Shown piece after piece: positions 4,872 through 39,499 of a stretch of DNA of 39,499 bases. The position numbers and the translations under genes are program-made. Below the pieces are notes generated by a model that saw only the letters and a program-made list of their open reading frames with translations, was not told where the DNA came from and did not search any database. Origin of the DNA: a virus; UHGV virus genome UHGV-0144131; one strand, 5' to 3'. Position 1 is the first letter of the stretch. Each line of letters starts with the position of its first letter.

Positions 4872-5633
4872 TTAAGATGAAGCGTTCGCTATTTGAGCTT
4901 CATTAAATGTGAAACCGGCCTGTTTAAGGCGCTGGATTAAGCGAGGTACAGTTTCTCGAACATGATCATTAAAGTTGAGATAAAGAATACCCGCAGCATC
5001 AGAAGGCTGTTCAAGGTGTTGCTTCTGCAAGATGACCACGTTACTGCGGCCGAGTGATGATAACAACATCCCCATTTCTAGAACTACATTTTGACGAGCC
5101 CTGGGCAGGGCTGCTTCTTGACCGTCTCTTTTGGAGTATCCCACATCATCGGGAGTGAGAAGAACAATGCCGAAACGAGTCGCTGTCTGCCCTTGACCAA
5201 TTTCACGCTCCAGTTCTTCAATTATCGTAAGTCCAGTACCACCTGTATTCTGCAAAATAAAATGATCAGGTAACCCAAGCTTATGAAGAATGAGCTCAAG
5301 CTGCTCTTTTGCTGCATGGTCGTGACCGTGAACGATGAAAATCTTTTTGGCTGGCTCTTGAACCGGGGCTGGCTGAACTCGTTGAGCTGGCGCGTTACCC
5401 AAGTGTTCATTAATAATGGCTTCAACCTCTGGTTTTGCCGCTTGTGAGCCTTGAATCAAAATCGTTCCGGTGTGGTAAAGCGTTATGATGGCACCATTAC
5501 TTAAACGATAACAATCATGACCGGCTTTGTTTTCTTCTCCGGTAACATCAAATCCGGATTCGACTAAAAATTGACGAAAAGTTTCGACAGGGTGTGGGTA
5601 TTTGAGAGCCATTTCATTGAGATCCTGCATCAT
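4872..5633 (-). CDS. TIR-like nucleotide-binding domain protein with an N-terminal domain of unknown function
   Basis: 253 aa. The C-terminal ~150 aa begins KKIFIVHGHDHAAKEQLELILHKLGL...GIVLLTPDD, matching my recollection of the TIR-like family (COG4271/PF10137-type: hydrophobic strand + HG+D, conserved Gly, acidic patch). Tandem ATGATG start with AGGA RBS. Confidence 0.55.
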   Translation of the reverse strand: MMQDLNEMALKYPHPVETFRQFLVESGFDVTGEENKAGHDCYRLSNGAIITLYHTGTILIQGSQAAKPEVEAIINEHLGNAPAQRVQPAPVQEPAKKIFIVHGHDHAAKEQLELILHKLGLPDHFILQNTGGTGLTIIEELEREIGQGQTATRFGIVLLTPDDVGYSKRDGQEAALPRARQNVVLEMGMLLSSLGRSNVVILQKQHLEQPSDAAGILYLNFNDHVRETVPRLIQRLKQAGFTFNEAQIANASS

Positions 5634-5686: not shown

Positions 5687-7762
5687 CTAATCCTTACAGT
5701 AGTGGTACGCCTCAAAACCGCCAGCGTTCAGTGGGATATCGGGCGCCCATTCGGGGTTAGTGGAGAGAAGCGCGGAAAGCACTTTATCGTTGAAATCTTC
5801 TGTGTCAGGTGCTTCGGTGATCACCTCGTCGTGTACCGTCAACACAATGCTGTAACCGGCATCTTCGATAAGCGGCATGTTTCCGGCCAGAACGTCGCGG
5901 GCGGCCGCCTGGGTGACGTTCTCCACCAGCTTTCCGCCGTAGGTTTTGAGTCGTTGCCATTTACGCGAATAAGAGTTAACACCCATATAGGTGATATTCC
6001 CTTTTTCGATAACCGGAGACGGGTAGCATACAGCGCGTCCGGATGGTAGCTGTATGCGCAGCCACGCGCCATCACGTCGGATTTTAAGATAACCGCAATA
6101 CAATGTTTTTTGCGGTGTGGCGATTGCTGTGCGGACAGTGCGCTCCAGCTCGTACCAGAAATCGCAGGTCGCCGGGTGCGCCCTGCGCCACAGGCGCTTG
6201 AGCGAGTCACATGCGATGAATACACGCTCGGAAAGGCCAAAGGTCGACTTACGTTTAACCGATTCGTCGTACCAGCTTTTCGCCTCGCGGATAACATCGC
6301 GGGGAATGTTTGGCAGTGCGGCGTTCGCCAGCTCGTCGAGATCGAGACCGTAAACCAGAGCAAAAGTGATGAAAGCCGATACACCACCTCCATAACCCAG
6401 ACCGAGTTCCATGACTTTACCGATCTGACGCATGTGTTTATCAACATCATCTGGTGCAATATCGAAAGCTTTTGCATACGCCAGTTTATATAAGTCCGGA
6501 CCCGTTCCGGCGTCGTACTCTCTGAATGCATTCAGTTTCCATTCTTCTCCCGCCAGCCATGCCAGCATACGGCCTTCAATGTTTGACAAGTCACTTACCA
6601 CCAGTTTTTTGCCTGTTGGCGCGATAATGCAGCCACGTAACGCTGAACTGGTTAGTTCCATGATATTGTCAAACAGCAGGTCTGCACATCCGGCTTTCAG
6701 TGCTTCGATGCCTTCGTCTATTTGTTCCTGTTTTAGTGAAGGGCGGGGAAGGTTCTGGGGCTGGAATAGCCGTCCGGCCCAACGACCGGTACGTGACGCC
6801 CCGCAGAACTGTAGCGTACCGCGTAAGCGCCCGTCGTGGCTTACGCCTTTCATCAGTGCCTTGTATTTACTGGTGCTGGTAGTACTGGCTTGCAGGCGGA
6901 TAGCCAGCAGTTCTTTCACGGCAGATGGTAAATCGGGGTCGGCAATACGACGTTCCAGAGTACTGCGTTGCATGTCTGGTAGCTCCACACTGTAGGATTC
7001 AACAATGTGCTTAATCAACGCGTCCCGTTGTGTGGCTGCCTGCACTTCGCCATCAGTCATTTCCTGTGTACGCTTTGCCAGGCGCTTTTGCTCCTGGTCT
7101 ACCGCTTCGATCGCAGCGCGCGCGAGTTGCATGTCCATGCAGACGCCCCGGTCGTTGATCTGCTGATCACGATGCCAGAGCGCCAGCTCTGTCCCCTGAT
7201 AATTCCACTTCGGCAGACGTTTATAGACTTCGCGCATTGCCTCGATATCCAGTCCGGCGTAAGCAACAAAGCGCCGCCATTCTTCCGGGTGGGTTTTGCT
7301 GGTGGCACGGCGCAGTTTGCTGTTTTTCGGGCGGGGCTTACAGAACAGCTGGATCAGCGCTTTACCTTCTTTGTCCTTCGCTTTGTCTTGCGGGACGCCG
7401 AGTATTTCGCAGAGTTCCCCCAGAGACCCCGGGAGACCATGCGCCAGCGCCTGTACCATTGTGTCTCGCCAGCGTTTGGCACTACCTGCAACAACACATT
7501 GGGGAGTGTGCAGTAATGCATGGCGCAACATGGTGCGATCGAAATGGCTGTTGTGTGCATATATTAGTACGCTCTCATCGCTGAGAGCTGTCAGTAGTCG
7601 TGTCGGCAAGTTATAGTCTGTGGTTAAATCGTGTACGCTGACGGGGTCTTCGTCGATTGCCCATGCGAATAACATGATTTCGACTCCTTCTGCATAGACA
7701 TGGGTGCCGTTTTTTATTGGGATTTCGCTGAAAGTTTCGAGGTCTAACCAAAGTTTTTGCAT
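5687..7762 (-). CDS. Family-A DNA polymerase with 3'-5' exonuclease domain
   Basis: N-terminus has exo motifs ([16 protein letters not shown]); central and C-terminal parts have Pol A-like motifs ([15 protein letters not shown]). Start set at the ATG at 7762 ([11 protein letters not shown]); the longest ORF begins with TTG at 7804 inside the 7797..7813 hairpin. Confidence 0.85.
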
Positions 7763-7791
7763 CAAGTAAGGACCCGTTGGATTTAATAAAT

Positions 7792-7818
7792 AAAAAGCCG
7801 CCAAAATGGCGGCTTTTT
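7792..7818. terminator. Rho-independent, bidirectional terminator
   Basis: AAAAAGCCGCC-AAAAT-GGCGGCTTTTT: GC stem flanked by an A-run and a T-run, directly after the SIR2-like gene stop and before the polymerase start. Confidence 0.6.
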
Positions 7819-7838: not shown

Positions 7839-9341
7839 TTAATATGATAAATAATCATACAAGCATAAAAGTCGCCTGTATTGGGTATCAATTTTATGCC
7901 CTGGTTTTGTTAAATAATCTCGTAGTTGTTTCAATGAAATAGTATCGTTTAGTACGCAATACATAATCGTGTTAGCAACTTTATACTCTTTCGTTTCTTT
8001 TAGTATTTCATCAATAGACACAGCCTCACTCTTACATGTTTTAATTCGAGAAAGGTTACCAATGATTTTATCTAGCTGCCGTTTTCTGTATGTCTCGGTA
8101 TTTTCTAGTTCAGGGCAGATAGAACTAAAAGCGTATATTGGAAAGTGTTCGCTATTAGCTATGGTTTGCTTATTCAGTAATGCGATAAGCTGAGAGTTTG
8201 CTTCGTCAACTATTTTAAAATAGTTCTGTATCATTTCAGATTTTGTTTGATAAACATATTGTACGGTTCTTTCTGAACCAACAGCAATGACCATTTCATC
8301 ATTGCGAAGTTCATCTAAATTTTCTGTAATTTTAACCTTTATCTCACCACCACTTTTGATGGTACTCCAAACTTTTTGAACCTTTCTTATGTCCATTGCG
8401 GATACTGGCAAAACTAGTCCAGAGATGGCATCATATACAGCTTTGTAATTGTTTGTTTTTATTTTGTTTATTCTTATGATAGACATGCCTTCTATATCTA
8501 TGTCATGCTCCGTAATTTCAGTTGACATGCTGTCTTTTTCGTATTCAACCAAAAGGAAATTATCTTTTATCCTTTTTGCAAGTTCGGTATTTAAGTCAAC
8601 GTATGAGAATATGGTTTTTAATAAGTACTTAATGTTTTTATCGCTAATACTATACCCTATAAATATGATAGGGTTGTGTATGAATATTGAGAGTAATTGA
8701 GCGCGAATTAACTCATATTTATTGTCGAAGTTTGCGTAGTCTTCACCTGTGATAATTATGTTGTTAGGATCACTAACACAGCCATGTATTTTGTAAACTG
8801 AACCGTATGGGTTACTTAAAAGAATGTTGTTACCAATCAGTGGGTTAAATTCGAAGATATTCTCTACGAGTTGGTCGTAGTTTGTTGTAATGATGGAGCC
8901 TATGTTTTTTCTTGTTTTTATTAAGCTGTTTATTTCCTCCATCATTGACTCTTTTATCTTTAGGTCTTTAAGTATTGAAGTTAAATAAATTTTGAATCGA
9001 CTTAGTTTTTTTCCTTTTTTCATGTGCTCATAGAAAACATCATTGATGTCTTTGAACTTACCGTTACGGTCTTCTGCCAGCTTTTTATTAAAAATATCTT
9101 CAAGTTTTGTAGCTAAGATATCATATCGATAGTCGTCACCTTCTAGGCTTTCAGCTTTCAAATCGTAGTAAAACTCAGCATTACCGGTTAGTTCCATTGC
9201 GACACTCAAAAGAAGACCATCCCAGCTAAATGAGTTTTCTAGATACCGTAGGCTAAATCCTGTTCCAATGAATAGAACAGGGTGGTTTTTATAGTGACTT
9301 ACAAACTCTTGGATTTCCATACCGATTCTCAAAGTTGACAC
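7839..9341 (-). CDS. SIR2-like (SIR2_2 / ThsA-like) protein, candidate NAD+-consuming defence effector
   Basis: 500 aa. N-terminal ~280 aa carries motifs I associate with defence-type sirtuin domains: glycine-rich loop FIGTGFS, TTNYD, KIHG, then IFIGYSISD. C-terminal ~200 aa is unassigned. Strongly AT-rich; GTG start at 9341 with AGAGG RBS; own terminator at 7792..7818. Confidence 0.7.
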   Translation of the reverse strand: MSTLRIGMEIQEFVSHYKNHPVLFIGTGFSLRYLENSFSWDGLLLSVAMELTGNAEFYYDLKAESLEGDDYRYDILATKLEDIFNKKLAEDRNGKFKDINDVFYEHMKKGKKLSRFKIYLTSILKDLKIKESMMEEINSLIKTRKNIGSIITTNYDQLVENIFEFNPLIGNNILLSNPYGSVYKIHGCVSDPNNIIITGEDYANFDNKYELIRAQLLSIFIHNPIIFIGYSISDKNIKYLLKTIFSYVDLNTELAKRIKDNFLLVEYEKDSMSTEITEHDIDIEGMSIIRINKIKTNNYKAVYDAISGLVLPVSAMDIRKVQKVWSTIKSGGEIKVKITENLDELRNDEMVIAVGSERTVQYVYQTKSEMIQNYFKIVDEANSQLIALLNKQTIANSEHFPIYAFSSICPELENTETYRKRQLDKIIGNLSRIKTCKSEAVSIDEILKETKEYKVANTIMYCVLNDTISLKQLRDYLTKPGHKIDTQYRRLLCLYDYLSY

Positions 9342-16415: not shown

Positions 16416-16850
16416 ATGCGTAGTATTCAACAGGTTTTAGAGCGCTGGGGTGGCTGGGCTGCCAATAGCAACACCACAGTGAGCTGGGCTCCAATAGCGG
16501 CGGGATTTAAAGGGCTGGTAGTCAGCAGCTCGCCTGGCAGGCTGAGTTGCTGTGACGACGATGGCCTGATTATCGATGCTTGCGTCTGTCGACTGCAGCA
16601 GGTCCGTAAGCCTGAGGAACTGGACGTCATTATGCTGTACTACGTCTACGGGTTAAGCAAACGTGAGATAGGGCGGCGGCGTCGCTGTTCTGAAGGATTT
16701 ATCCGCCAGCAGTTGCAGGTAGCTGAGGGATTCATTGAGGGGTGTCTCTGCATGCTGGGTGTGAGCCTTCAGATGGATCCTGAGGTCGAAATTCAAAGGG
16801 ATGAAAAAAGTATTAGTGCGCTACGCAAAAACTGCGCTACGCTGGTATGA
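16416..16850 (+). CDS. Q-like late-gene antitermination protein
   Basis: 144 aa beginning MRSIQQVLERWGGWAA with a Cys-rich centre (CCDDD...C.C), matching my recollection of lambdoid Q-family proteins; sits just upstream of the lysis cassette. Confidence 0.75.
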   Translation: MRSIQQVLERWGGWAANSNTTVSWAPIAAGFKGLVVSSSPGRLSCCDDDGLIIDACVCRLQQVRKPEELDVIMLYYVYGLSKREIGRRRRCSEGFIRQQLQVAEGFIEGCLCMLGVSLQMDPEVEIQRDEKSISALRKNCATLV

Positions 16851-29932: not shown

Positions 29933-30120
29933 CGTTTAACAGCCTGCCGGACGGGCTGTCCTACCTTCTCAATCCGGTTGACGCCGGGTTAATTCCTTAT
30001 ACAGCACTTAAAGATGGCTCTGTCGATTTGTACGACATTGCTCTCTTGAATGACCATCTGGCGGTAAAAGCGGATAACCAGCGGCGCATTGAGAAATGGA
30101 GAGAGGATAATGAACGCTGA
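29878..30120 (+). other. Programmed -1 frameshift site and extension ORF (GT-like product)
   Basis: Canonical heptamer A_AAT_TTT at 29878..29884 in frame 0; the -1 frame is open from there to a TGA at 30118..30120 (hand-translated, no stops), overlapping the tape-measure start. Confidence 0.6.
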
Positions 30121-32098
30121 AACTATTAAAGATTTCCTCGTCTCGCTTGGCTTCAGTGTGGATGATGCAGGAGCGAAAAAGTTCGGTTCTGTCCTCGCCG
30201 GTACAACTGCAAATGTCATCAAAATGGGGCTGGCCGTCGAAGGAACTGCACTGTCCGTGGTGGCCTTCACGGCTAAGATCGCCTCCGGTCTGGATAATCT
30301 TTACTGGGCGTCACAGCGCACCGGCGCGACGGTCCATGGAATTCAGTCTATTGGCTATGCGGTTTCGCAGGTTGGCGGCAGTGCAGACGCTGCGCGCTCT
30401 TCTCTGGAAAGCCTCTCCCGGTTTATTCGTAACAATCCCGGTGCAGAGGGATTTCTGAATCGCCTGGGGGTACAGACACGGGATGCCAGCGGTAACATGC
30501 GTGACATGGCCTCTATTTTTACAGGTGTAGGCCAGAAGCTCAGCGGCATGCCGTATTACCGGGCTAACCAGTATGCGCAGATGCTGGGCATTGACGAAAA
30601 TACCCTTATGGCGATGCGCCGGGGTGTGGGTGGCTTCTCCGGGCAGTACAGCGCAATGGCGAAAGCTATCGGCTTCAATGCTGACGAGGCGGCCAGAAGC
30701 TCCAACAAATTTATGACCTCCCTGCGCGAGTTCGGCGCGATGGCAGGCATGGCCCGTGACAAAATCGGCTCTAATCTTGCTGGTGGTCTGGCGGGTTCGC
30801 TGGACACACTGCGCCGCCACATCCTCGATAACTTCCCGCGCATCGAGCAGACCCTGACGAAAGCCATAAAAGGCATTCTGGCGCTCGGAGACATCATCGG
30901 GCGGCTGTTCTTCAGGCTAATTGAGGGAACATCCAGCCTTATCACCTGGTGGCAATCGCTGGATAAGCAAACGCGGGAGCTCATCTCGCTGTTTGGCGCG
31001 CTGACGATTGCGCTGCGCATTCTGAACAGTACGTTCTGGATGTCGCCGATTGGCCTCATTACCGCGCTGGCGGCGGGGATTGCCCTTCTGTGGGAGGACT
31101 ATCAGACCTGGAAGGAAGGCGGCGATAGCCTGATTGACTGGGGCAAGTGGAAGCCGGAGGTCGATGCCGCGCTGAAGATGGTTCGTGACCTGAAAGGGTC
31201 TGTTAATGAACTGGTGAAAGCGCTGGCGAAACTGCTCAATATTGACCCCAAATCATGGTCCCTGAAGTGGGATTTCAGCAACTTCATCGACCAGATGGGC
31301 GAATTCAGCAAAATGCTGAACATGATCGCCGACCTGCTCAACGCTATCAAAGATGGCCGCTGGGCTGATGCCGTCAGCATCGGCAAACAGATACTTAATC
31401 AGGGCAGCGAAAATCCGTCAGCGATGCCGATGGTTACAGACAGCGCTAACAGTACTGCCGACTGGATTAAAGAGCACTGGGGATTCGATCCCCGCAGTGT
31501 GGGCCGGACGGTACGCGGCTGGTTTGGTGATGATGAGCCGGAACAATATGCACAGGCTACGAAACGAGGAGAACGGAATAACAATCCGGGAAACCTTAAT
31601 TTTGCTGGTCAGGCAGGGGCTTCTCTTGAACGCCCGGGCGGGCGATTTGCCAGATTTGAAACTGCTTTTGATGGATTACGGGCTCTTGCTCGTCAGTTAA
31701 TGCTGTACGCCGGACGGGGAATAAACAGTGTGGAGAAAATTATCTCTACCTGGGCACCTGCGTCTGATAATAACAACACAACTGCGTATATCAGGGCTGT
31801 ATCGCAACGACTGGGAGTGGATCCCCGGGCTGCCCTGAATATGAGCGATCCGCAAACCATGTCAGCATTGATGAGCAGCATTATCCAGCATGAGAATGGA
31901 AGAAATATCTATTCTCGAGAGCTGATTAATAAGGCTGCCGTGGCGGGAATTAGTGGCAAAATGACAGAGGTTAACCAGCAAAATACCTACCACATTTACG
32001 GTGGTGGAGATCCGCACGCTGTCGGTAATGAGGTTGCACGTCGGCAACAGTCTGCAAATGCTCAGGTCATGCGAAGTAATCAGGTGAGGGTGGGTTAG
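30110..32098 (+). CDS. Tail tape measure protein
   Basis: About 660 aa, helical, Ala/Gly-rich. Start at ATG 30110 with GGAGAGAGG RBS; the longest ORF starts with TTG at 30089. Confidence 0.7.
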   Translation: MNAETIKDFLVSLGFSVDDAGAKKFGSVLAGTTANVIKMGLAVEGTALSVVAFTAKIASGLDNLYWASQRTGATVHGIQSIGYAVSQVGGSADAARSSLESLSRFIRNNPGAEGFLNRLGVQTRDASGNMRDMASIFTGVGQKLSGMPYYRANQYAQMLGIDENTLMAMRRGVGGFSGQYSAMAKAIGFNADEAARSSNKFMTSLREFGAMAGMARDKIGSNLAGGLAGSLDTLRRHILDNFPRIEQTLTKAIKGILALGDIIGRLFFRLIEGTSSLITWWQSLDKQTRELISLFGALTIALRILNSTFWMSPIGLITALAAGIALLWEDYQTWKEGGDSLIDWGKWKPEVDAALKMVRDLKGSVNELVKALAKLLNIDPKSWSLKWDFSNFIDQMGEFSKMLNMIADLLNAIKDGRWADAVSIGKQILNQGSENPSAMPMVTDSANSTADWIKEHWGFDPRSVGRTVRGWFGDDEPEQYAQATKRGERNNNPGNLNFAGQAGASLERPGGRFARFETAFDGLRALARQLMLYAGRGINSVEKIISTWAPASDNNNTTAYIRAVSQRLGVDPRAALNMSDPQTMSALMSSIIQHENGRNIYSRELINKAAVAGISGKMTEVNQQNTYHIYGGGDPHAVGNEVARRQQSANAQVMRSNQVRVG

Positions 32099-32685
32099 TG
32101 GATATTCTCTCTACACTTTTTCATCAGCAGAGCAGAAAAATAGGAATGATTGTTCCCAGTGTTGTTATTTCAGAGAAGCATACAGATATGCTTGAAATAA
32201 CAGAGCATCCGGTAGAGGTTGGGGCCGCTGTCGCTGATCATGCCTATAAAAAACCGTCAGAAGTGGTGATGGAGGTTGGTTTCGCCGGTGGCGGCGCATT
32301 GCTGGATTTTGCCAGTAATCTGACGGCTACCAGCCTGCTCGGCCTGAGTCCTCAGCAGACGTATCAGGAGCTACTGGATCTGCAGGAAAGCCGTATCCCC
32401 TTCGATGTGGTAACCGGTAAACGACTGTACAGCAACATGTTGATCCGGGCGCTGGAAGTGACGACGGACAAGACAACCGAAAACGTCCTGTCCGCCGTCC
32501 TCACCCTGAGGGAGGTCCTTATCTCCCGGACGCAGCAGATTACCGTCGCGGATAAAACCAACATGAAGGAAGGGGCCAGCACGTCGGCGGTACAGAACAG
32601 CGGCAACAAAACCACCAAGCCTCCAGATACTTCACTGCTGAAAAGCATCACGGGTAACGTGGCGTCATTACTGGGGGGCGGCTAA
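32098..32685 (+). CDS. Putative tail/baseplate assembly protein
   Basis: 195 aa, GTG start overlapping the tape-measure stop. Confidence 0.5.
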   Translation: MDILSTLFHQQSRKIGMIVPSVVISEKHTDMLEITEHPVEVGAAVADHAYKKPSEVVMEVGFAGGGALLDFASNLTATSLLGLSPQQTYQELLDLQESRIPFDVVTGKRLYSNMLIRALEVTTDKTTENVLSAVLTLREVLISRTQQITVADKTNMKEGASTSAVQNSGNKTTKPPDTSLLKSITGNVASLLGGG

Positions 32686-32987
32686 TGACAATTCAGGAAA
32701 TTCCGCTGACAGCGGACAACCAGCAGTTCAGCATCGTCCTGGGTGGTGTCACCTGGCGGATTAGCATCATATGGCGCGATCTGTACTGGATTATGGACCT
32801 GCAGAACGACAGAGGGGAGCCGGTAATCTCCGGTATTCCTCTCGTCACTGGTGCTGACCTGCTGGCGCAGTACGCCTGTATGGGACTTGGTTTTAAGCTG
32901 GTGGTGGTCTGCGATGACAACACACAGGATTATCCCACGAAAACTGATCTGGGCGGCCTCAGTCATTTACTGGTATCAACGGAGTAA
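32685..32987 (+). CDS. Hypothetical tail protein
   Basis: 100-aa ORF with 1-nt overlap to the upstream gene. Confidence 0.5.
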   Translation: MTIQEIPLTADNQQFSIVLGGVTWRISIIWRDLYWIMDLQNDRGEPVISGIPLVTGADLLAQYACMGLGFKLVVVCDDNTQDYPTKTDLGGLSHLLVSTE

Positions 32988-32989
32988 GC

Positions 32990-34057
32990 ATGTCACAGAA
33001 CTGGATGAGACATTTCGAGCTGCAGCTTGTGGACGGGAACGGTCAGGGAATTGAGCTAAGTGATTTCAAAGTCACCTTTACGATCGACTGGTTCAACATC
33101 AGCAGCGCGTCCCGGGTAGGGACTATCAAAATTTATAACCTCTCGGCAGATACTGTGAACCGAATCACCGGGCAGGAATTTTCGAAAGTGCGTCTGATTG
33201 CCGGTTACGACGGTATCGCGCCGGAGGTGTCAGCAAGCGACGTAGGGACCGTGCGGGAAGTTGACGCGGCGGACGTGGGCCAGAGAGATGGCCGCAACTA
33301 CGGACTGATTTTCAGCGGTGAAATTCGCTACTCGGTCACAGGAAAAGACAGTCCGGTTGATTCCTACGTCCTGATTCAGGCAGCAGATACTGATCTGGCT
33401 TTTGCCACCAGTATAACCTCACAGACGCTGGCTGCCGGTTACACGGTCGCTGATGTGAACCGTGCGCTGATGAAAGACTTCGAAGCCAAAGGTGCGACCG
33501 AAGGCCTGACGCCTGAAATGCCTGCTACTGTATTCCCCCGGGGGCGGGTGCTCTTTGGCATGACGCGGCATCTAATGGATAACGTAGCCGGGCAATGTGG
33601 CGCAACATGGCAATTCGTGGATGGTCAGCGCCAGATGGTGGTGAATAATGAATATGTTCACGAAGCGATTGTGCTCAACAGCGCTACCGGGCTTATTGGC
33701 ATGCCGCAGCAGACCATCGGCAACGGCGTAAACGTCCGCGCGCTTATTAATCCGAACATCCGGGTTAATGGGCTCATTCAACTGGATCAGGCTTCCGTAT
33801 ATCGCACCGCGTTGTCGAACAACGATATCGCTATGGCTGGTGGGCAGATCACCGACCAGAACACGGACGGAAATATTACGCTAAGCGGCACCATATCGCA
33901 GCCTGCCAGCATCGCAACGGATGGCGTTTATATTGTGCGCGGGATTATGTACACTGGCGACACAAGGGGCCAGGCGTGGTACATGGATATGATGTGCGAA
34001 GCGCGCGGTGCGGCGGATCTTCGTTCGGCGTCGTCTTTACAGCGTGAGGTAGGATAG
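32990..34057 (+). CDS. Putative baseplate hub protein
   Basis: 355 aa between tape measure and baseplate V/W/J; assigned by position and size. Confidence 0.45.
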   Translation: MSQNWMRHFELQLVDGNGQGIELSDFKVTFTIDWFNISSASRVGTIKIYNLSADTVNRITGQEFSKVRLIAGYDGIAPEVSASDVGTVREVDAADVGQRDGRNYGLIFSGEIRYSVTGKDSPVDSYVLIQAADTDLAFATSITSQTLAAGYTVADVNRALMKDFEAKGATEGLTPEMPATVFPRGRVLFGMTRHLMDNVAGQCGATWQFVDGQRQMVVNNEYVHEAIVLNSATGLIGMPQQTIGNGVNVRALINPNIRVNGLIQLDQASVYRTALSNNDIAMAGGQITDQNTDGNITLSGTISQPASIATDGVYIVRGIMYTGDTRGQAWYMDMMCEARGAADLRSASSLQREVG

Positions 34058-34410
34058 TGAAAAAGTGGATTGTTATTGGACTCTGTTTCCTTCCGGGGTT
34101 CGCATTTGCTGCGAATCCTGGCGGTGTCACGCTTCAGTGTGGTGGCTACAAATTAGAGTTGATTCCTGATTCATTGTTCAGGATTAATGGTGAGACAGTT
34201 ACCTCCCAGAAAATCAAAACGCTCGGCAACGGTAATGGAATGAAGGCGGATATGGGGCTTATGCCAGCCAAAGACGGTAACAATTACGGTTTCGAGTTCA
34301 TTCGCCGTCCGGGTACCGAAACGCGTTTCTTGAATGTCCAACTACTGCAGAACAGCATGGATGCGCCGAGAATCATAGGTTCGTTTCCTTGTAAGAAGGT
34401 TGACGATTAA
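34057..34410 (+). CDS. Small secreted (periplasmic) protein, accessory gene in the tail module
   Basis: 117 aa with a signal peptide (MKKWIVIGLCFLPGFAFA, AxA cleavage motif); GTG start; no resemblance to tail components. Confidence 0.5.
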   Translation: MKKWIVIGLCFLPGFAFAANPGGVTLQCGGYKLELIPDSLFRINGETVTSQKIKTLGNGNGMKADMGLMPAKDGNNYGFEFIRRPGTETRFLNVQLLQNSMDAPRIIGSFPCKKVDD

Positions 34411-34416
34411 TACAAT

Positions 34417-34947
34417 ATGTGCAATCAAAGGAATGAGGCTGTTGGCCTTGAAGTAGATACGATTTTGTCGTACTCGAGAGACAGGTATGAAGAAGTTAAG
34501 ACAACATACAGGCGGTTAGAGGACAAAGCTAATTTTCTTCTTGCTGTGCTTGGTGTTGAGATTTCTGCATTATTAGCCGTTTTTGGGTCCTTTGAGCTGG
34601 GACAACAGTTAAAGACTAGTCTATCCGCAAGATTGTCTCTATTGTGTCTATGTTCATGTTTTGTATGTTTGGTTTTTTGTTTTTATTATTTATGGAAATG
34701 TTGGGAACTTAGAAATATTCCCAAAATGCCTGTGCATCGAACACCTGAACAACATGAATTTCTTCTGAGGGGTAGTAGAGATGACACAGTCAGATTTCAT
34801 TTGATAATGTATGGTAGGGCTATTGATAGAATCGAGAAAATCCATAAAGAAAAATCAGCGTTTGTAAATGAGTTGTTTCGATGGATGGTTATGTCATTTG
34901 TATTTTTTATTATTTCTGTAACGTGCATGTTAATAAGTAAGGTTTGA
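34417..34947 (+). CDS. AT-rich two-helix membrane protein, accessory gene in the tail module
   Basis: 176 aa with hydrophobic helices (FLLAVLGVEISALLAVFG, LSLLCLCSCFVCLVFCFYYLW, WMVMSFVFFIISVTCMLI) and a charged N-terminal helix; visibly lower G+C than the flanking tail genes. Confidence 0.6.
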   Translation: MCNQRNEAVGLEVDTILSYSRDRYEEVKTTYRRLEDKANFLLAVLGVEISALLAVFGSFELGQQLKTSLSARLSLLCLCSCFVCLVFCFYYLWKCWELRNIPKMPVHRTPEQHEFLLRGSRDDTVRFHLIMYGRAIDRIEKIHKEKSAFVNELFRWMVMSFVFFIISVTCMLISKV

Positions 34948-34949
34948 AT

Positions 34950-35123
34950 ATGTCCTGTCCAGAAGACCAAAATGAACCACAACCTAAACCAAGTGAGCCT
35001 GAGGTCTCTTTCCTAGATAACTATGAGCAAGAGATTATGGCTAGAGTACCTTTCGGGGATATCGAAATTATGACGGAAAGCTATCACGACAAGCCTTCAA
35101 CTTTTCCCAAGAAAGATAGTTAG
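34950..35123 (+). CDS. Small acidic hypothetical protein
   Basis: 57-codon hand-translated ORF (MSCPEDQNEPQPKPSEPEVSFLDNYEQEIMARVPFGDIEIMTESYHDKPSTFPKKDS) starting 3 nt after the membrane-protein stop. Confidence 0.3.
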   Translation: MSCPEDQNEPQPKPSEPEVSFLDNYEQEIMARVPFGDIEIMTESYHDKPSTFPKKDS

Positions 35124-35143
35124 TGAAGTTCTTATAAATCAAA

Positions 35144-35166
35144 CCCGCCACCAGGCGGGTTTTTTG
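35144..35166 (+). terminator. Rho-independent terminator closing the accessory cassette
   Basis: CCCGCC-ACCA-GGCGGG followed by six T. Confidence 0.7.
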
Positions 35167-35184
35167 CTTTCTGGAGCCTACTAA

Positions 35185-35937
35185 ATGGCCGTATCTGACC
35201 AGACCCGCAGCGGCGACCTTGCCGAAACATTCAAATCTGAACGGGAAACAACAAAGAACCAGATCCGTGTCGCCTTGCCTGGCATTATTCAGTCATTCGA
35301 TCCTGATGCGGTGACGGCAGTTGTGCAGCCTGCTATCCGTTCGGTTGAAAAGGATAATGACGGCAACCGCATTACCCAAAATTACCCGCTGTTGGTGGAT
35401 GTGCCGGTGATATTTCCGCGCGGCGGCGGCTGCACGTTAACTTTCCCGGTGGAAGCCGGCGATGAATGCCTGGTGATTTTTGCCGATCGCTGCATCGATT
35501 TCTGGTGGCAGAACGGCGGGATACAGGAGCCGGTTGATGACAGAATGCATGATTTATCGGATGCGTTTTGTATTGTCGGTCCCCAGTCGCAGGCAAGGAA
35601 GATTAGCGGTATTAATACCAGTGCCACACAGTTGCGTAGTGACGATGGCAGCACCTATTTTGAGCTTAATCCTGATACCGGGAAAATTAAAATTGTCGCT
35701 CCGGGTGGTCTTGATGTGGTTACCCCTCTGGCTGATTTTTCTGAGAAAGTAACCATTCATGGCCTGTTAACCTGGTTGGGGGGCATGGTGGGGTCTGTGG
35801 TTTCTGGTGTGGCTTCAAAAATCACTGGTGCTGTTGAGTTTTTGGGGAGCGTGAAGGCTAACGGCAAGCCAATCGATGATACGCACACTCATGGTGGTGT
35901 TCAGCGCGGCGGAAGCAATACTGATGGGGTAAACTGA
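35185..35937 (+). CDS. Baseplate assembly protein V (spike/hub, gpV-like)
   Basis: 250 aa with a Gly-rich C-terminus (HTHGGVQRGGSNT) typical of gpV-like proteins. Confidence 0.7.
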   Translation: MAVSDQTRSGDLAETFKSERETTKNQIRVALPGIIQSFDPDAVTAVVQPAIRSVEKDNDGNRITQNYPLLVDVPVIFPRGGGCTLTFPVEAGDECLVIFADRCIDFWWQNGGIQEPVDDRMHDLSDAFCIVGPQSQARKISGINTSATQLRSDDGSTYFELNPDTGKIKIVAPGGLDVVTPLADFSEKVTIHGLLTWLGGMVGSVVSGVASKITGAVEFLGSVKANGKPIDDTHTHGGVQRGGSNTDGVN

Positions 35938-36290
35938 TGCGATACAGACGTGAAGACGCCGATGGCGATTACACCTTTGGCAGCGGTGATGACACCTGGC
36001 TGATTAACTCGCCTGAGGCCGTAGCACAGGCTGTGAAAACGCGATTCGAATTGTGGTATGGGCAATGGTTTCTCGACACCACCGAAGGGACTCCGTGGAT
36101 CCAGTCTGTGCTCGGTAAGCAGAAGCCGGAAACCTACAACCTGGCGATCCGTAAGCGCATCCTCGAAACGCGGGGCGTTAAATCAATCCTCTCTTTCAAT
36201 ACGACAGTGGATACCACGACCCGACGTGTCATGTTTTCCGCTGAAATCGACACTCTTTATGGAATAACGACTGTTACATCGGAGGCGTAA
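35937..36290 (+). CDS. Baseplate protein W (gp25-like)
   Basis: 117 aa, the size and position of GPW/gp25-family wedge proteins; TGATG-coupled to V. Confidence 0.75.
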   Translation: MRYRREDADGDYTFGSGDDTWLINSPEAVAQAVKTRFELWYGQWFLDTTEGTPWIQSVLGKQKPETYNLAIRKRILETRGVKSILSFNTTVDTTTRRVMFSAEIDTLYGITTVTSEA

Positions 36291-37489
36291 TGGCTCTGAA
36301 CCTTGATTCTCTCGGTTTATCTGCAAAGGTAACCGCGGAGGGGATCAGTGCGCCTGATTATCAGACGATACTCAGCACCCTGATTAGCTATTTTCAGCAG
36401 ATTTATGGTAGTGATGCCTACCTCGAACCGGATAGTAAAGACGGCCAGATGGTGGCTCTGATGGCGCTGGCGATTCATGATGCCAATAATACTGCGATAA
36501 CTGTCTACAACTGTTTTTCACCGGCAACCGGCTATGGGGCCGCACTGACCAGTAACGTGAAAATAAATGGTATTTCACGTAAAGGCGCGACGAATTCTAC
36601 GGTTGATTTGCTTCTTACAGGAACTGCCGGAACAACCATCATTAATGGCAGCGTGAAAGACAGTAATAATGTGATATGGCGTTTGCCTGCTTCAGTGGTG
36701 GTCGGCGTGGATGGTACAGTGATGGTGACCGCAACATGTTCCGTCAGTGGTGCAGTGGCGGCGCTGGCTGGAACTATCACTGAAATTAATACGCCAACCC
36801 GTGGCTGGGTTTCGGTAACTAATCCTGCTGCGGCTACTGTAGGCACTCCGGCAGAAACTGACGCTGAGTTACGTATCCGCCAGTCGCAAAGTGTTGCGTT
36901 GCCATCAATAACCCCATTTGAAGCACTGGATGGTGCTGTTTCTAATGTTACCGGTGTAACCCGCCACAAACTCTATGAAAACGATAATGGTTCGGAGGAC
37001 GGTAACGGGTTACCGCCACACTCTGTTGCTGTAATTGTGGATGGCGGTGATGTGACGGATATTGCTCAGGCTATCAGAGGGAATAAAGGCCAGGGAACAG
37101 CCACTCACGGTACAACATCCGTTACGGTTCCGGATAAATACGGCAATCCCCATGTAATCAAATTTTCGCGTTCCAGTGATGTGCCTGTTTATGCCCGGAT
37201 TAAATTAAAAGTTTTTACGGGTTATACCTCACAGATAGGGCAGCAGATCCAGCAGGCTATTTCCGACTATATCAATAGTCTGATGATTGGTGATTCGGTC
37301 CTTTTAAGTCGCATTTACTCACCGGCGAATCTTGGCGTGGTGAGTGGCGGGAATGCACGCTATTACGATATTCAGGAACTGACGATTGGGAAATCCCCGG
37401 GGGCTTTGTCGTCATCAAACATTGATATCAGATACAACGAATCTGCGTCCTGTACCCCGGAAAATATCGTTATAACGGTGGAGTCATGA
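36290..37489 (+). CDS. Baseplate J-like protein
   Basis: 399 aa following W; TAATG-coupled. Confidence 0.75.
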   Translation: MALNLDSLGLSAKVTAEGISAPDYQTILSTLISYFQQIYGSDAYLEPDSKDGQMVALMALAIHDANNTAITVYNCFSPATGYGAALTSNVKINGISRKGATNSTVDLLLTGTAGTTIINGSVKDSNNVIWRLPASVVVGVDGTVMVTATCSVSGAVAALAGTITEINTPTRGWVSVTNPAAATVGTPAETDAELRIRQSQSVALPSITPFEALDGAVSNVTGVTRHKLYENDNGSEDGNGLPPHSVAVIVDGGDVTDIAQAIRGNKGQGTATHGTTSVTVPDKYGNPHVIKFSRSSDVPVYARIKLKVFTGYTSQIGQQIQQAISDYINSLMIGDSVLLSRIYSPANLGVVSGGNARYYDIQELTIGKSPGALSSSNIDIRYNESASCTPENIVITVES

Positions 37490-38876: not shown

Positions 38877-39317
38877 ATGAATTACATATATTCCGCGACT
38901 ACAAACTCTTTCTATCCGCTGGAGATGAAAGAGGATTACACTCAAGCTGACTCATGGCCAGATGATGCTGTTGAAGTTGATGAGCAAGTGTATATTGAGT
39001 TTTCCGGATTACCGCCGAAAGGAAAAATCCGTATCGCTGGAGAAAATGGTTTTCCTGCATGGTCTGAAATTCCACCACCAACACATGAGGAACAGATTGC
39101 TGCAGCCGAACTGGAAAAGCAGCAACTGATTAATCAGGCCAACGATTATATGAACAGTAAACAATGGCCTGGTAAAGCGGCTATTGGTCGTCTGAAAGGT
39201 GAGGAACTGGCGCAATATAATTTGTGGCTGGATTATCTGGACGCACTGGAACTGGTCGATACTTCCGGTGCGCCAGATATTGAATGGCCTACGCCTCCGG
39301 CAGTTCAGGCCAGATGA
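38877..39317 (+). CDS. Tail fibre assembly protein (Tfa)
   Basis: 146 aa starting MNYIYSATTNSFYP and ending ...DTSGAPDIEWPTPPAV, both typical of enterobacterial Tfa chaperones. Confidence 0.8.
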   Translation: MNYIYSATTNSFYPLEMKEDYTQADSWPDDAVEVDEQVYIEFSGLPPKGKIRIAGENGFPAWSEIPPPTHEEQIAAAELEKQQLINQANDYMNSKQWPGKAAIGRLKGEELAQYNLWLDYLDALELVDTSGAPDIEWPTPPAVQAR

Positions 39318-39499
39318 CGTCCGGCGCTGTGCTGGTATCTGTTGCCGTCACCGCGTCAATGTAATCCAGCACAGCGTTAAGTCGGGTGTTTTCTGGCTGC
39401 GTCAGCTTCCGCCCAGCCTGTAATTTCAGTTGAATCAGACTGATGGAAGCCATTGCAGCATCAATCAGCGACTGGCGCTGTGCTTCTGCCGCTTCTACT
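39289..39499 (-). CDS. Second tail fibre assembly gene, inverted orientation, 3' part only
   Basis: Hand-translation of the - strand gives ...LKLQAGRKLTQPENTRLNAVLDYIDAVTATDTSTAPDVIWPELPEA*, a Tfa-type C-terminus; its 3' end overlaps the + strand Tfa by about 29 nt. Continues beyond the window. Confidence 0.65.
   Translation of the reverse strand, partial: VEAAEAQRQSLIDAAMASISLIQLKLQAGRKLTQPENTRLNAVLDYIDAVTATDTSTAPDVIWPELPEA

Follow-up and report, generated by a model that had tools for sequence, protein, structure and literature searches.

A variable cargo slot in the tail operon of an Escherichia coli prophage, and a candidate membrane module within it

Why would a phage keep three small genes, none of which resembles a virion component, in the middle of its tail operon? 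The question is posed by UHGV virus genome UHGV-0144131, a stretch of 39,499 nucleotides (nt) that is referred to here as the window. The window is an E. coli prophage, and the region discussed is 100% identical to ECONIH2 and MS20659 and 99.6% identical to IAI1. It is placed in the SEN34-like group, in which lambdoid regulation goes with a contractile tail (PMC5261728). Between its baseplate hub and spike genes lie three open reading frames (ORFs), encoding proteins of 117, 176 and 57 amino acids (aa), and then a terminator. An initial annotation, made from the sequence alone, regarded all of this as one inserted accessory cassette. The coordinates and sizes of the ORFs were confirmed, and so was their location between genes for a baseplate hub (NF047561) and a spike (PF18352 plus the Apex motif). 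No resemblance to virion proteins was found for any of the three products. However, the cassette itself has to be divided. Only ORF2 and ORF3 are exchanged between related prophages, whereas ORF1 and the terminator are part of the backbone. Tentatively, the exchanged pair could be a membrane-acting module, and the genes of the slot may serve lysogenic conversion, exclusion or anti-defence, as the annotation had supposed.

The exchangeable part of the hub-spike slot

The extent of the cargo can be read from related loci. Eighty were fetched from IMG/VR with the hub protein, annotated phages and genomes were added, and the 83 loci that contain both hub and spike form the set for the slot counts given here. 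Hub sequences in the 80 IMG/VR loci are 96-100% identical. Spike follows hub at a distance of 683 to 1864 nt, and in the set as a whole the space is filled by at least 18 gene architectures with at least 12 types of cargo, ORF2/ORF3 being one of them. Conserved flanks around many unrelated cargo sets, joined at sharp boundaries, are what is expected of a prophage accessory or defence hotspot.

Where are these boundaries? The initial annotation had proposed comparison with relatives that lack the insert, and pairwise blastn of the window against 13 loci with different cargo gives a clear answer. Homology breaks off on the left at 34397..34411, in the conserved 3' end of ORF1, and in 12 of the 13 loci it returns on the right at 35126..35142, where the stem of the terminator begins. 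In the remaining locus, L004, it resumes only at 35172. A 14th locus, L057, carries a diverged ORF2/ORF3 pair and aligns with the window throughout. Near the right junction a 59-nt match at 89.8% identity is also present in many E. coli genomes with other cargo. Base composition tells the same story, with a trough in GC content (0.345-0.38) confined to ORF2 and ORF3. ORF2 is AT-rich, as first described, with a GC content of 0.36, and ORF3 has 0.42, versus 0.52-0.55 in the flanks. The replaceable cargo is ORF2 plus ORF3 only, at about 34412-35140. Recombination presumably uses two anchors, the 3' half of ORF1, which is strongly conserved, and the terminator together with the spike leader.

The distribution of the genes bears this out. 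A homologue of ORF1 stands first in the slot in 80 of the 83 loci and is present in all isolated relatives (in the other three loci a different signal-peptide protein or lipoprotein takes its place), and the terminator is kept in 79. ORF2 and ORF3 occur in seven loci and are missing from the other 76. Among 5426 complete E. coli genomes they are found in eight, which is also eight of the 195 with any match to the query, and many E. coli genomes have ORF1 DNA that is about 95% identical. A tblastn search with ORF2 gave no match in 50,697 phage records or 72,556 plasmids. ORF2 and ORF3 are thus not among the conserved tail genes of related phages, and the initial view of them as accessory rather than structural holds, on both distribution and composition.

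What if the three genes nevertheless act together, as a single envelope-acting cassette for lysogenic conversion in which ORF1 works with ORF2 and ORF3? The same structural genes enclose all three, a single terminator follows them, ORF1 is exported while ORF2 is membrane-bound, and ORF1 is hypervariable, as might be expected of a protein that interacts with a host or a phage. However, ORF1 alleles that are 93-99% identical to the window copy are paired with at least nine different, unrelated cargos, and because of this the exchange of cargo must be independent of ORF1. The occurrence of ORF1 in 80 loci versus seven for the pair means that they are genetically uncoupled, and both the GC trough and the left junction leave ORF1 outside the insert. 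A joint cassette is therefore very improbable, being largely refuted by the distribution.

The other cargos provide some context for the pair. The commonest arrangement (34 loci) is a variable TPR-like protein of 243-266 aa with a 142-aa protein that matches HEPN weakly. Next come a 192-aa protein with a YafO-family toxin (PF13957, E = 4e-17; 12 loci), next to nothing at all (10 loci), ORF2 with ORF3, a DUF2335 membrane protein (four loci, three with ORF1 and one with another signal-peptide protein) and various singletons. Cargo elsewhere in the slot, namely YafO, HEPN_IX and DUF2335, is typical of defence or addiction. Among the family matches only that to YafO is clear; those to HEPN_IX (0.009) and to PycTM in the case of ORF2 (1e-4) are weak, and the cargos are otherwise without a match.

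The commonest cargo has a peculiarity of its own. Its first gene is highly variable and falls into at least three unrelated clusters (L007, 1836-2995; L008, L011, L021, L022, L024, L030, L045 and others), and phage YP3 has a fourth, related-looking TPR-like protein of 266 aa without a partner. Judged from the printed sequences, the clusters appear alike at their C-terminal ends. The second gene is the conserved 142-aa protein with the HEPN_IX match (E = 0.009). Such a pair resembles a sensor that varies coupled to an effector that does not.

ORF2 and ORF3 as a conserved gene pair

Are ORF2 and ORF3 real genes? ORF2 (34417..34947, plus strand) encodes a predicted inner-membrane protein that is the proposed effector of the cargo, and ORF3 (34950..35123, plus strand) an acidic, proline-rich peptide that is its proposed regulator or antitoxin. 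The likeliest start of ORF3 is the ATG at 34950, with an AAGG Shine-Dalgarno sequence 7 nt upstream; a TTG at 34944 would give 59 aa instead of 57. The acidity noted in the initial annotation is pronounced (isoelectric point 4.25, net charge -8.4), and the peptide has a conserved core, VPFGDIEIMTESY. In RefSeq neither gene is annotated as a coding sequence in ECONIH2 and IAI1, where the space between ORF1 and spike is left empty, as would be expected if both were chance ORFs in AT-rich junk DNA. Conservation refutes this. Against the Salmonella copy, the ratio of nonsynonymous to synonymous substitutions (dN/dS) is 0.105 for ORF2 (dS 0.42) and 0.187 for ORF3 (dS 1.08), values similar to or below those of hub and spike, which indicates purifying selection on both. 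ORF2 also matches phrog_18554 (5e-60), has relatives in 41 representatives at E<1e-3 and yields an AlphaFold2 (AF2) model with a mean confidence (pLDDT) of 81, and the ORF beside it carries a conserved motif. Chance ORFs deserve next to no credence. Within the pair ORF3 evolves faster, with a dN of 0.20 versus 0.044 for ORF2.

Close relatives of ORF2 are widespread in Salmonella. A 90%-identical homologue is listed in 1249 blocks of an assembly collection, and in the five loci shown, prophage remnants included, it sits between an ORF1 homologue and spike. Nucleotide identity between the E. coli and Salmonella copies of ORF2 is 90%, versus 71-79% in the flanks. When the window is compared with the Salmonella locus L098, the most similar part (85-97%) is 34314-34947, from the 3' end of ORF1 through ORF2; ORF3 is about 75% identical and the 5' part of ORF1 50-65%. 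This peak suggests a recombination patch, or an unusually strong constraint on ORF2 that includes synonymous sites. In two Salmonella remnants (L096 and L100, 1-4000) an integrase/RecT region is joined straight to a truncated or missing hub, and ORF1, ORF2, ORF3 and baseplate genes are still there.

The pairing extends to much more distant relatives. Homologues at 41-52% identity (P0014, P0016, P0017/L057 and P0019) lie between spike and either an ORF1-type gene or hub, and each is followed by an ORF of 56-57 aa. The family is small, since an exhaustive profile search returned only the 41 representatives, although full-length homologues reach down to about 20% identity. Seven remote members were examined, six at about 20% (P0023, P0025, P0026, P0027, P0036 and P0048) and one, in L084, at 25%. 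Six of the seven have a small hydrophilic ORF of 38-65 aa directly after or overlapping them, one of which had been missed by the gene finder. Taken together, such an ORF directly follows in 11 of the 12 contexts examined. The small ORFs align on a core, P-[FP]-x-x-[LV]-x-[VYI]-x-T-E-S, behind which lies a tail rich in Pro and Lys; in the window the core of ORF3 reads VPFGDIEIMTESYHDKP. Remote members are found in surroundings of a mobile or conflict type: at the cargo end of a Tn7-like element, in a prophage that also has RelA_SpoT and Panacea genes, and beside a DUF4760 gene and a UvrD-like helicase.

A different arrangement is seen in three metagenomic members (P0030, P0033 and P0039). These have extensions of 40-80 aa past the last transmembrane (TM) helix, with an internal Met and a motif resembling T-E-S (ALESY, YLES or YVTEG). 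They may be fusions of ORF2 and its partner, or products of read-through or of gene calling.

What kind of protein is ORF2? The initial annotation gave it two helices, but both Kyte-Doolittle hydropathy and the AF2 model point to three hydrophobic ones, at about 37-62, 67-96 and 148-176. In the model (helices 7-58, 69-97, 110-118 and 121-175) a long N-terminal helix runs into TM1, TM2 follows, then comes a cytoplasmic helical hairpin with many Lys and Arg residues, and a long helix ends in TM3. Structure searches with this model were uninformative, and a sequence-profile search of the PDB found nothing significant and hence no solved relative. The one sequence signal that recurs is a weak one: ORF2 matches three PADLOC models of PycTM (PDLC02363-5) with E-values of 2.6e-4 to 1.5e-3. 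The same models are matched by 10 of its 41 relatives, making 11 of the 42 family members, with a best value of 2.2e-5. P0027 aligns end to end with a PycTM model (residues 9-162 to model positions 8-157 of 160). Faint precomputed matches to PF18967 exist for P0027 and for four of the 90%-identical Salmonella homologues, and none of 10 reversed sequences matches PycTM at E<=0.1. ORF2 is therefore probably, going by these profile matches, a distant relative of PycTM. A place for it in a Pycsar system can be ruled out with certainty: no cyclase is found in the prophage annotation or beside any of the 12 family members examined.

The pairing of a membrane protein with a small peptide also raises the matter of addiction. 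ORF2 might be a membrane toxin and ORF3 its labile antitoxin, in the manner of SpoIISA/SpoIISB, so that the pair would stabilise the prophage or its remnant with no dedicated role against phages. The gene order suits this, with the membrane protein first and the 57-aa acidic peptide tightly coupled behind it, as does the faster evolution of ORF3. A YafO toxin pair uses the same slot, the module persists in the degraded remnants L096 and L100, and SpoIISA (PDB 3o6q) is the second-best match of ORF2 in the PDB, albeit a non-significant one (E = 0.17 over 40 residues). However, the pair shows no significant homology to known toxin or antitoxin families in Pfam, NCBIfam, PADLOC or the PDB, and several partner peptides in the wider family are basic, not acidic. 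Pure addiction seems unlikely on balance. In any case many toxin-antitoxin systems act in abortive infection, which means that this explanation overlaps with the preferred one rather than excluding it.

The terminator, ORF1 and a possible mechanism

The terminator lies just upstream of the ribosome-binding site of spike (35141..35172, plus strand; AAACCCGCC-ACCA-GGCGGGTTT and a T-run). Its stem is GC-rich and 9 base pairs long (35141-35162), and the surrounding 66-nt stretch has a folding-energy z-score of -4.0, so the first description of it as strong was correct. Sub-threshold matches in Rfam are to the hairpin itself and to nothing else. Hairpin and T-run are kept in 79 of the 83 loci whatever the cargo, with the stem preserved and the loop varying (ACCA, ACCC, ACTT, ATTC or TTCG). 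The four loci without it are L004, L043, L072 and phage YP3 (L002). In the first three ORF1 is present, and a minus-strand ORF encoding a 94-aa Cys-rich, zinc-ribbon-like protein replaces the plus-strand cargo. The phage encodes the antiterminator Q, and a conserved terminator placed just ahead of an essential late gene fits with transcription in the lysogen that lacks antitermination. Antitermination by Q would then carry late transcription through the slot terminator.

ORF1 (34057..34410, plus strand) is the resident gene of the slot. It starts with a GTG that overlaps the stop codon of hub. The predicted signal peptide of the initial annotation was confirmed (residues 1-18, MKK...AFA, in full MKKWIVIGLCFLPGFAFA, with the mature protein beginning AN). 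Homologues number 389 across Enterobacterales, all of about 110-117 aa. Every one has a signal peptide and the invariant cysteines C28 and C112, and conservation is very high in the C-terminal half. No Pfam domain is found in any of them, and Pfam and NCBIfam scans assign no family to ORF1, ORF2 or ORF3. Isolated temperate phages that carry ORF1 homologues include SEN34, Mulock, GZ7, YP3 and vB_EcoM phages, among others, and 17 of the 19 matches in phage records cover at least 80% of its length. Is ORF1, then, a tail gene after all? For the initial annotation, homologues kept as conserved essential tail genes in related phages would have been a sign of this, and half of that applies to ORF1, which has conserved homologues there where ORF2 and ORF3 do not. 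Nevertheless, the Sec signal peptide and the two invariant cysteines are the reason to regard ORF1 as exported rather than as a part of the tail, and it is predicted to be a small, all-beta periplasmic barrel.

ORF1 also differs from its neighbours in its rate of change. Copies in related loci have a median identity of 72% to that of the window; for the neighbouring structural genes the median is never below 95.6%. Judging from these alignments ORF1 is a fixed, fast-diversifying exported accessory protein and not a virion part, and a role in envelope-level exclusion is plausible. It is the only low-identity gene within the tail/baseplate block 30089-37489, and it varies mainly in the signal peptide and in the 25 or so mature residues that follow. 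The possibility that ORF1 inhibits the SLT domain of the phage's own tape measure was considered and is unsupported, as the two do not co-vary.

How might these elements work together? The slot may be viewed as having three layers. Periplasmic ORF1 would always come first and diversify rapidly. Behind it, modules of one or two genes would be exchanged by recombination between the 3' end of ORF1 and the terminator. Finally, the backbone terminator would halt any transcription during lysogeny ahead of the essential spike gene, while antiterminated late transcription would read through it. Within this slot ORF2 would be a membrane-damaging effector that works without a cyclase, and ORF3 would bind its cytoplasmic helical hairpin and so restrain or gate it. 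The case for gating rests on the conserved pairing, the faster evolution of the small partner and the other cargo of the slot. The shutoff of host expression by a rival phage, or loss of the prophage, might upset the balance between the two proteins. Freed ORF2 would then depolarise the membrane, resulting in abortive infection, exclusion or post-segregational killing. The toxicity of ORF2, the role of ORF3, expression in the lysogen and an anti-phage effect would all be needed for this, and each is inferred. Our preferred reading is that ORF2 and ORF3 form a moron in an accessory slot, a two-gene membrane module that needs no cyclase and serves abortive infection, exclusion or addiction. This is put forward as a tentative reading, one that we would not quite call probable.

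Several observations do not sit easily with this reading. The noise level for the PycTM matches is given by reversed control sequences, which matched an unrelated TM model by chance at 0.005-0.04. A Pfam scan does not return PF18967 for ORF2, P0002 or P0006 even at E<=10, an NCBIfam scan returns no PycTM match, and in PADLOC no experimentally validated defence system is matched. As for the pairing, P0048 lies in an ordinary chromosomal context without a small partner, and the C-terminus of ORF2, which the predicted topology places in the periplasm, would be an awkward site for fusion to a peptide that has no signal. Finally, no promoter above the chance level set by shuffled sequence is found upstream of ORF1 or ORF2, and ORF2 starts only 6 nt past the stop codon of ORF1. 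Because of these last two facts expression may be confined to the late operon, and this would fit a role in the lytic cycle at least as well as defence of the lysogen. Promoter scans in two other cargo types likewise gave no more matches than shuffled sequence.

Perhaps, then, ORF2 and ORF3 are expressed from the late operon alone and modulate the membrane of the infected cell for the benefit of the phage itself. They might possibly time lysis in the manner of a holin and antiholin, exclude late secondary infections, or form mixed oligomers that neutralise a host membrane effector. Besides the missing promoter and the short gap, their position in the late tail operon of a Q-antiterminator phage would suit such helpers, and the resemblance of ORF2 to a class of host defence effectors makes a decoy or poison subunit conceivable. 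However, in the prophage annotation lysis is already fully provided for by a cassette of lambda-family holin, GH24 endolysin and one further ORF downstream, and 76 of the 83 relatives dispense with the module. Distant relatives occur in mobile contexts other than phages, such as the Tn7-like cargo end. In addition, the conservation of a terminator directly before an essential late gene makes better sense if genes upstream of it are expressed in the absence of antitermination. A lytic-cycle helper is given a low probability, but it is still to be taken seriously as a competitor.

A more far-reaching version of the module reading can also be entertained. ORF2 and ORF3 could be a new two-component anti-phage system, with an effector descended from PycTM that has lost its cyclase and second messenger and come under the direct control of a short peptide with the T-E-S core. 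The slot would be an undescribed defence hotspot of SEN34-like prophages whose other dozen cargos are unknown systems, the common pair of TPR-like and HEPN-like proteins among them, and ORF1 would be a factor for exclusion at the envelope. As a whole this is doubtful. If the preferred reading fails, what is left is an ordinary moron with no function assigned.

The flanking genes are those of a conventional contractile tail. Their order is SLT-domain tape measure, Dit-like protein (32098-32685), Pam3-gp18-like plug (32685-32987), hub, ORF1-3, spike, sheath initiator and baseplate J. The hub gene (32990..34057, plus strand; E217 gp41-like) matches PF22759 (E217_GP41, 6.5e-5) and NF047561 (2.6e-47) and forms the conserved left side of the slot. 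The right side is the spike gene (35185..35937, plus strand; PF18352, 4.5e-44). The Q-family antiterminator gene lies at 16416..16850 on the plus strand, according to the RefSeq annotation of the identical ECONIH2 prophage. Towards the end of the window (38877-39453), and beyond it in L095 (24904-26874), tail-fibre assembly genes stand in opposite orientations beside a pinE-type recombinase, which indicates an invertible host-range segment that is cut by the window end. In the early region a minus-strand gene for a SIR2-family protein (7839-9341; PADLOC PDC-S25, 4e-158, with weaker ThsA matches) and another for a TIR-domain protein (4872-5633; PDC-S35, 2e-109, with weaker matches to PycTIR and TIR effectors) sit on either side of a DNA polymerase gene (5687-7804, also minus strand). 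The two genes might form a Thoeris-like arrangement that has been split, or each might be a candidate defence locus by itself.

Comparison with known systems

Much of the principle is already known: hotspots from P2 and P4 (PMC9122126), morons, and effectors of the PycTM type. Literature searches on STY1065/STY2022 and on a hub-spike hotspot found nothing relevant, and in the literature accessible here no description was found of a hotspot in the baseplate operon of SEN34-like phages, of its hypervariable exported resident, or of a PycTM-like protein that lacks a cyclase and is paired with a T-E-S peptide. If the readings given here are true, the slot is a new prophage site for mining anti-phage genes, after the P2/P4 hotspots but within a tail operon. 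With anchors that are exact, ORF1 at its 3' end on one side and the conserved terminator on the other, it could easily be harvested automatically from hundreds of Enterobacterales prophages. A membrane effector of the Pycsar type that can act without a cyclase, gated by a peptide, would bear on how signalling-based immune effectors are rewired. It also matters that two conserved genes have been left unannotated by RefSeq in E. coli.

SLATT proteins were the comparison made at the outset, on grounds of architecture. The general idea is common to both, that of a small helical membrane protein acting as a suicide effector in conflict systems, and here the initial annotation was partly right. It had the right class of protein, as the weak PycTM matches and the negative reversed controls suggest, but no SLATT model (Pfam SLATT_1-6 at E<=10, PADLOC) is matched by ORF2 or its relatives. 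A model of SLATT associated with reverse transcriptases was matched by reversed control sequences only, by chance.

SpoIISA/SpoIISB of Bacillus consists of a membrane toxin with three TM segments followed by a gene for a hydrophilic antitoxin of about 56 aa. ORF2 and ORF3 are alike in both architecture and gene order. However, the cytoplasmic domain of SpoIISA has a fold that differs from a helical hairpin, which is what the model predicts for the cytoplasmic part of ORF2.

The closest likeness is to PycTM (PF18967; PADLOC PDLC02363-5), which is reported to kill infected cells by disrupting the membrane through pore formation (PMC11224242). The two are alike in size (about 155-180 aa), their weak similarity is collinear from the N-terminal to the C-terminal helix, and both are found on mobile elements. 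In contrast, a PycC cyclase adjoins PycTM and none adjoins ORF2, whose score stays below the Pfam and NCBIfam thresholds. Pycsar also has no peptide with a T-E-S motif, whereas genes of the ORF2 family are paired with one.

How well does the module fit the definition of a moron? The concept reportedly goes back to Juhala and colleagues in 2000. Morons are extra genes of deviant composition between conserved late genes, followed by a terminator and absent from close relatives, and known examples confer superinfection exclusion or defence. Tab of Pseudomonas phage JBD26 is a late-operon moron that gives phage defence, and the reference list of the same paper includes HK97 gp15 as a moron-encoded superinfection exclusion protein (PMC10884400). 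ORF2 and ORF3 share the patchy presence, the low GC content and the downstream terminator. On the other hand, where a moron would have a promoter of its own that is active in the repressed prophage, the slot shows consensus-level matches, no more than shuffled sequence does, and its terminator is a backbone element common to all cargo types, whereas that of a moron normally arrives with the moron. A further difference is that morons are single insertions and the slot is a hotspot with many alleles.

In this last respect the slot is closer to the defence hotspots of P2-like prophages and P4 satellites (Rousset et al., 2022; PMC9122126). In both cases conserved flanks enclose variable cargos of one or two genes, among them genes that look like toxin-antitoxin or defence systems, although the cargos here are almost all uncharacterised. 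The setting is what sets the present slot apart. It belongs to a SEN34-like lambdoid myovirus with a baseplate of the Pam3/E217 type, and it is located inside the tail operon, between hub and spike.

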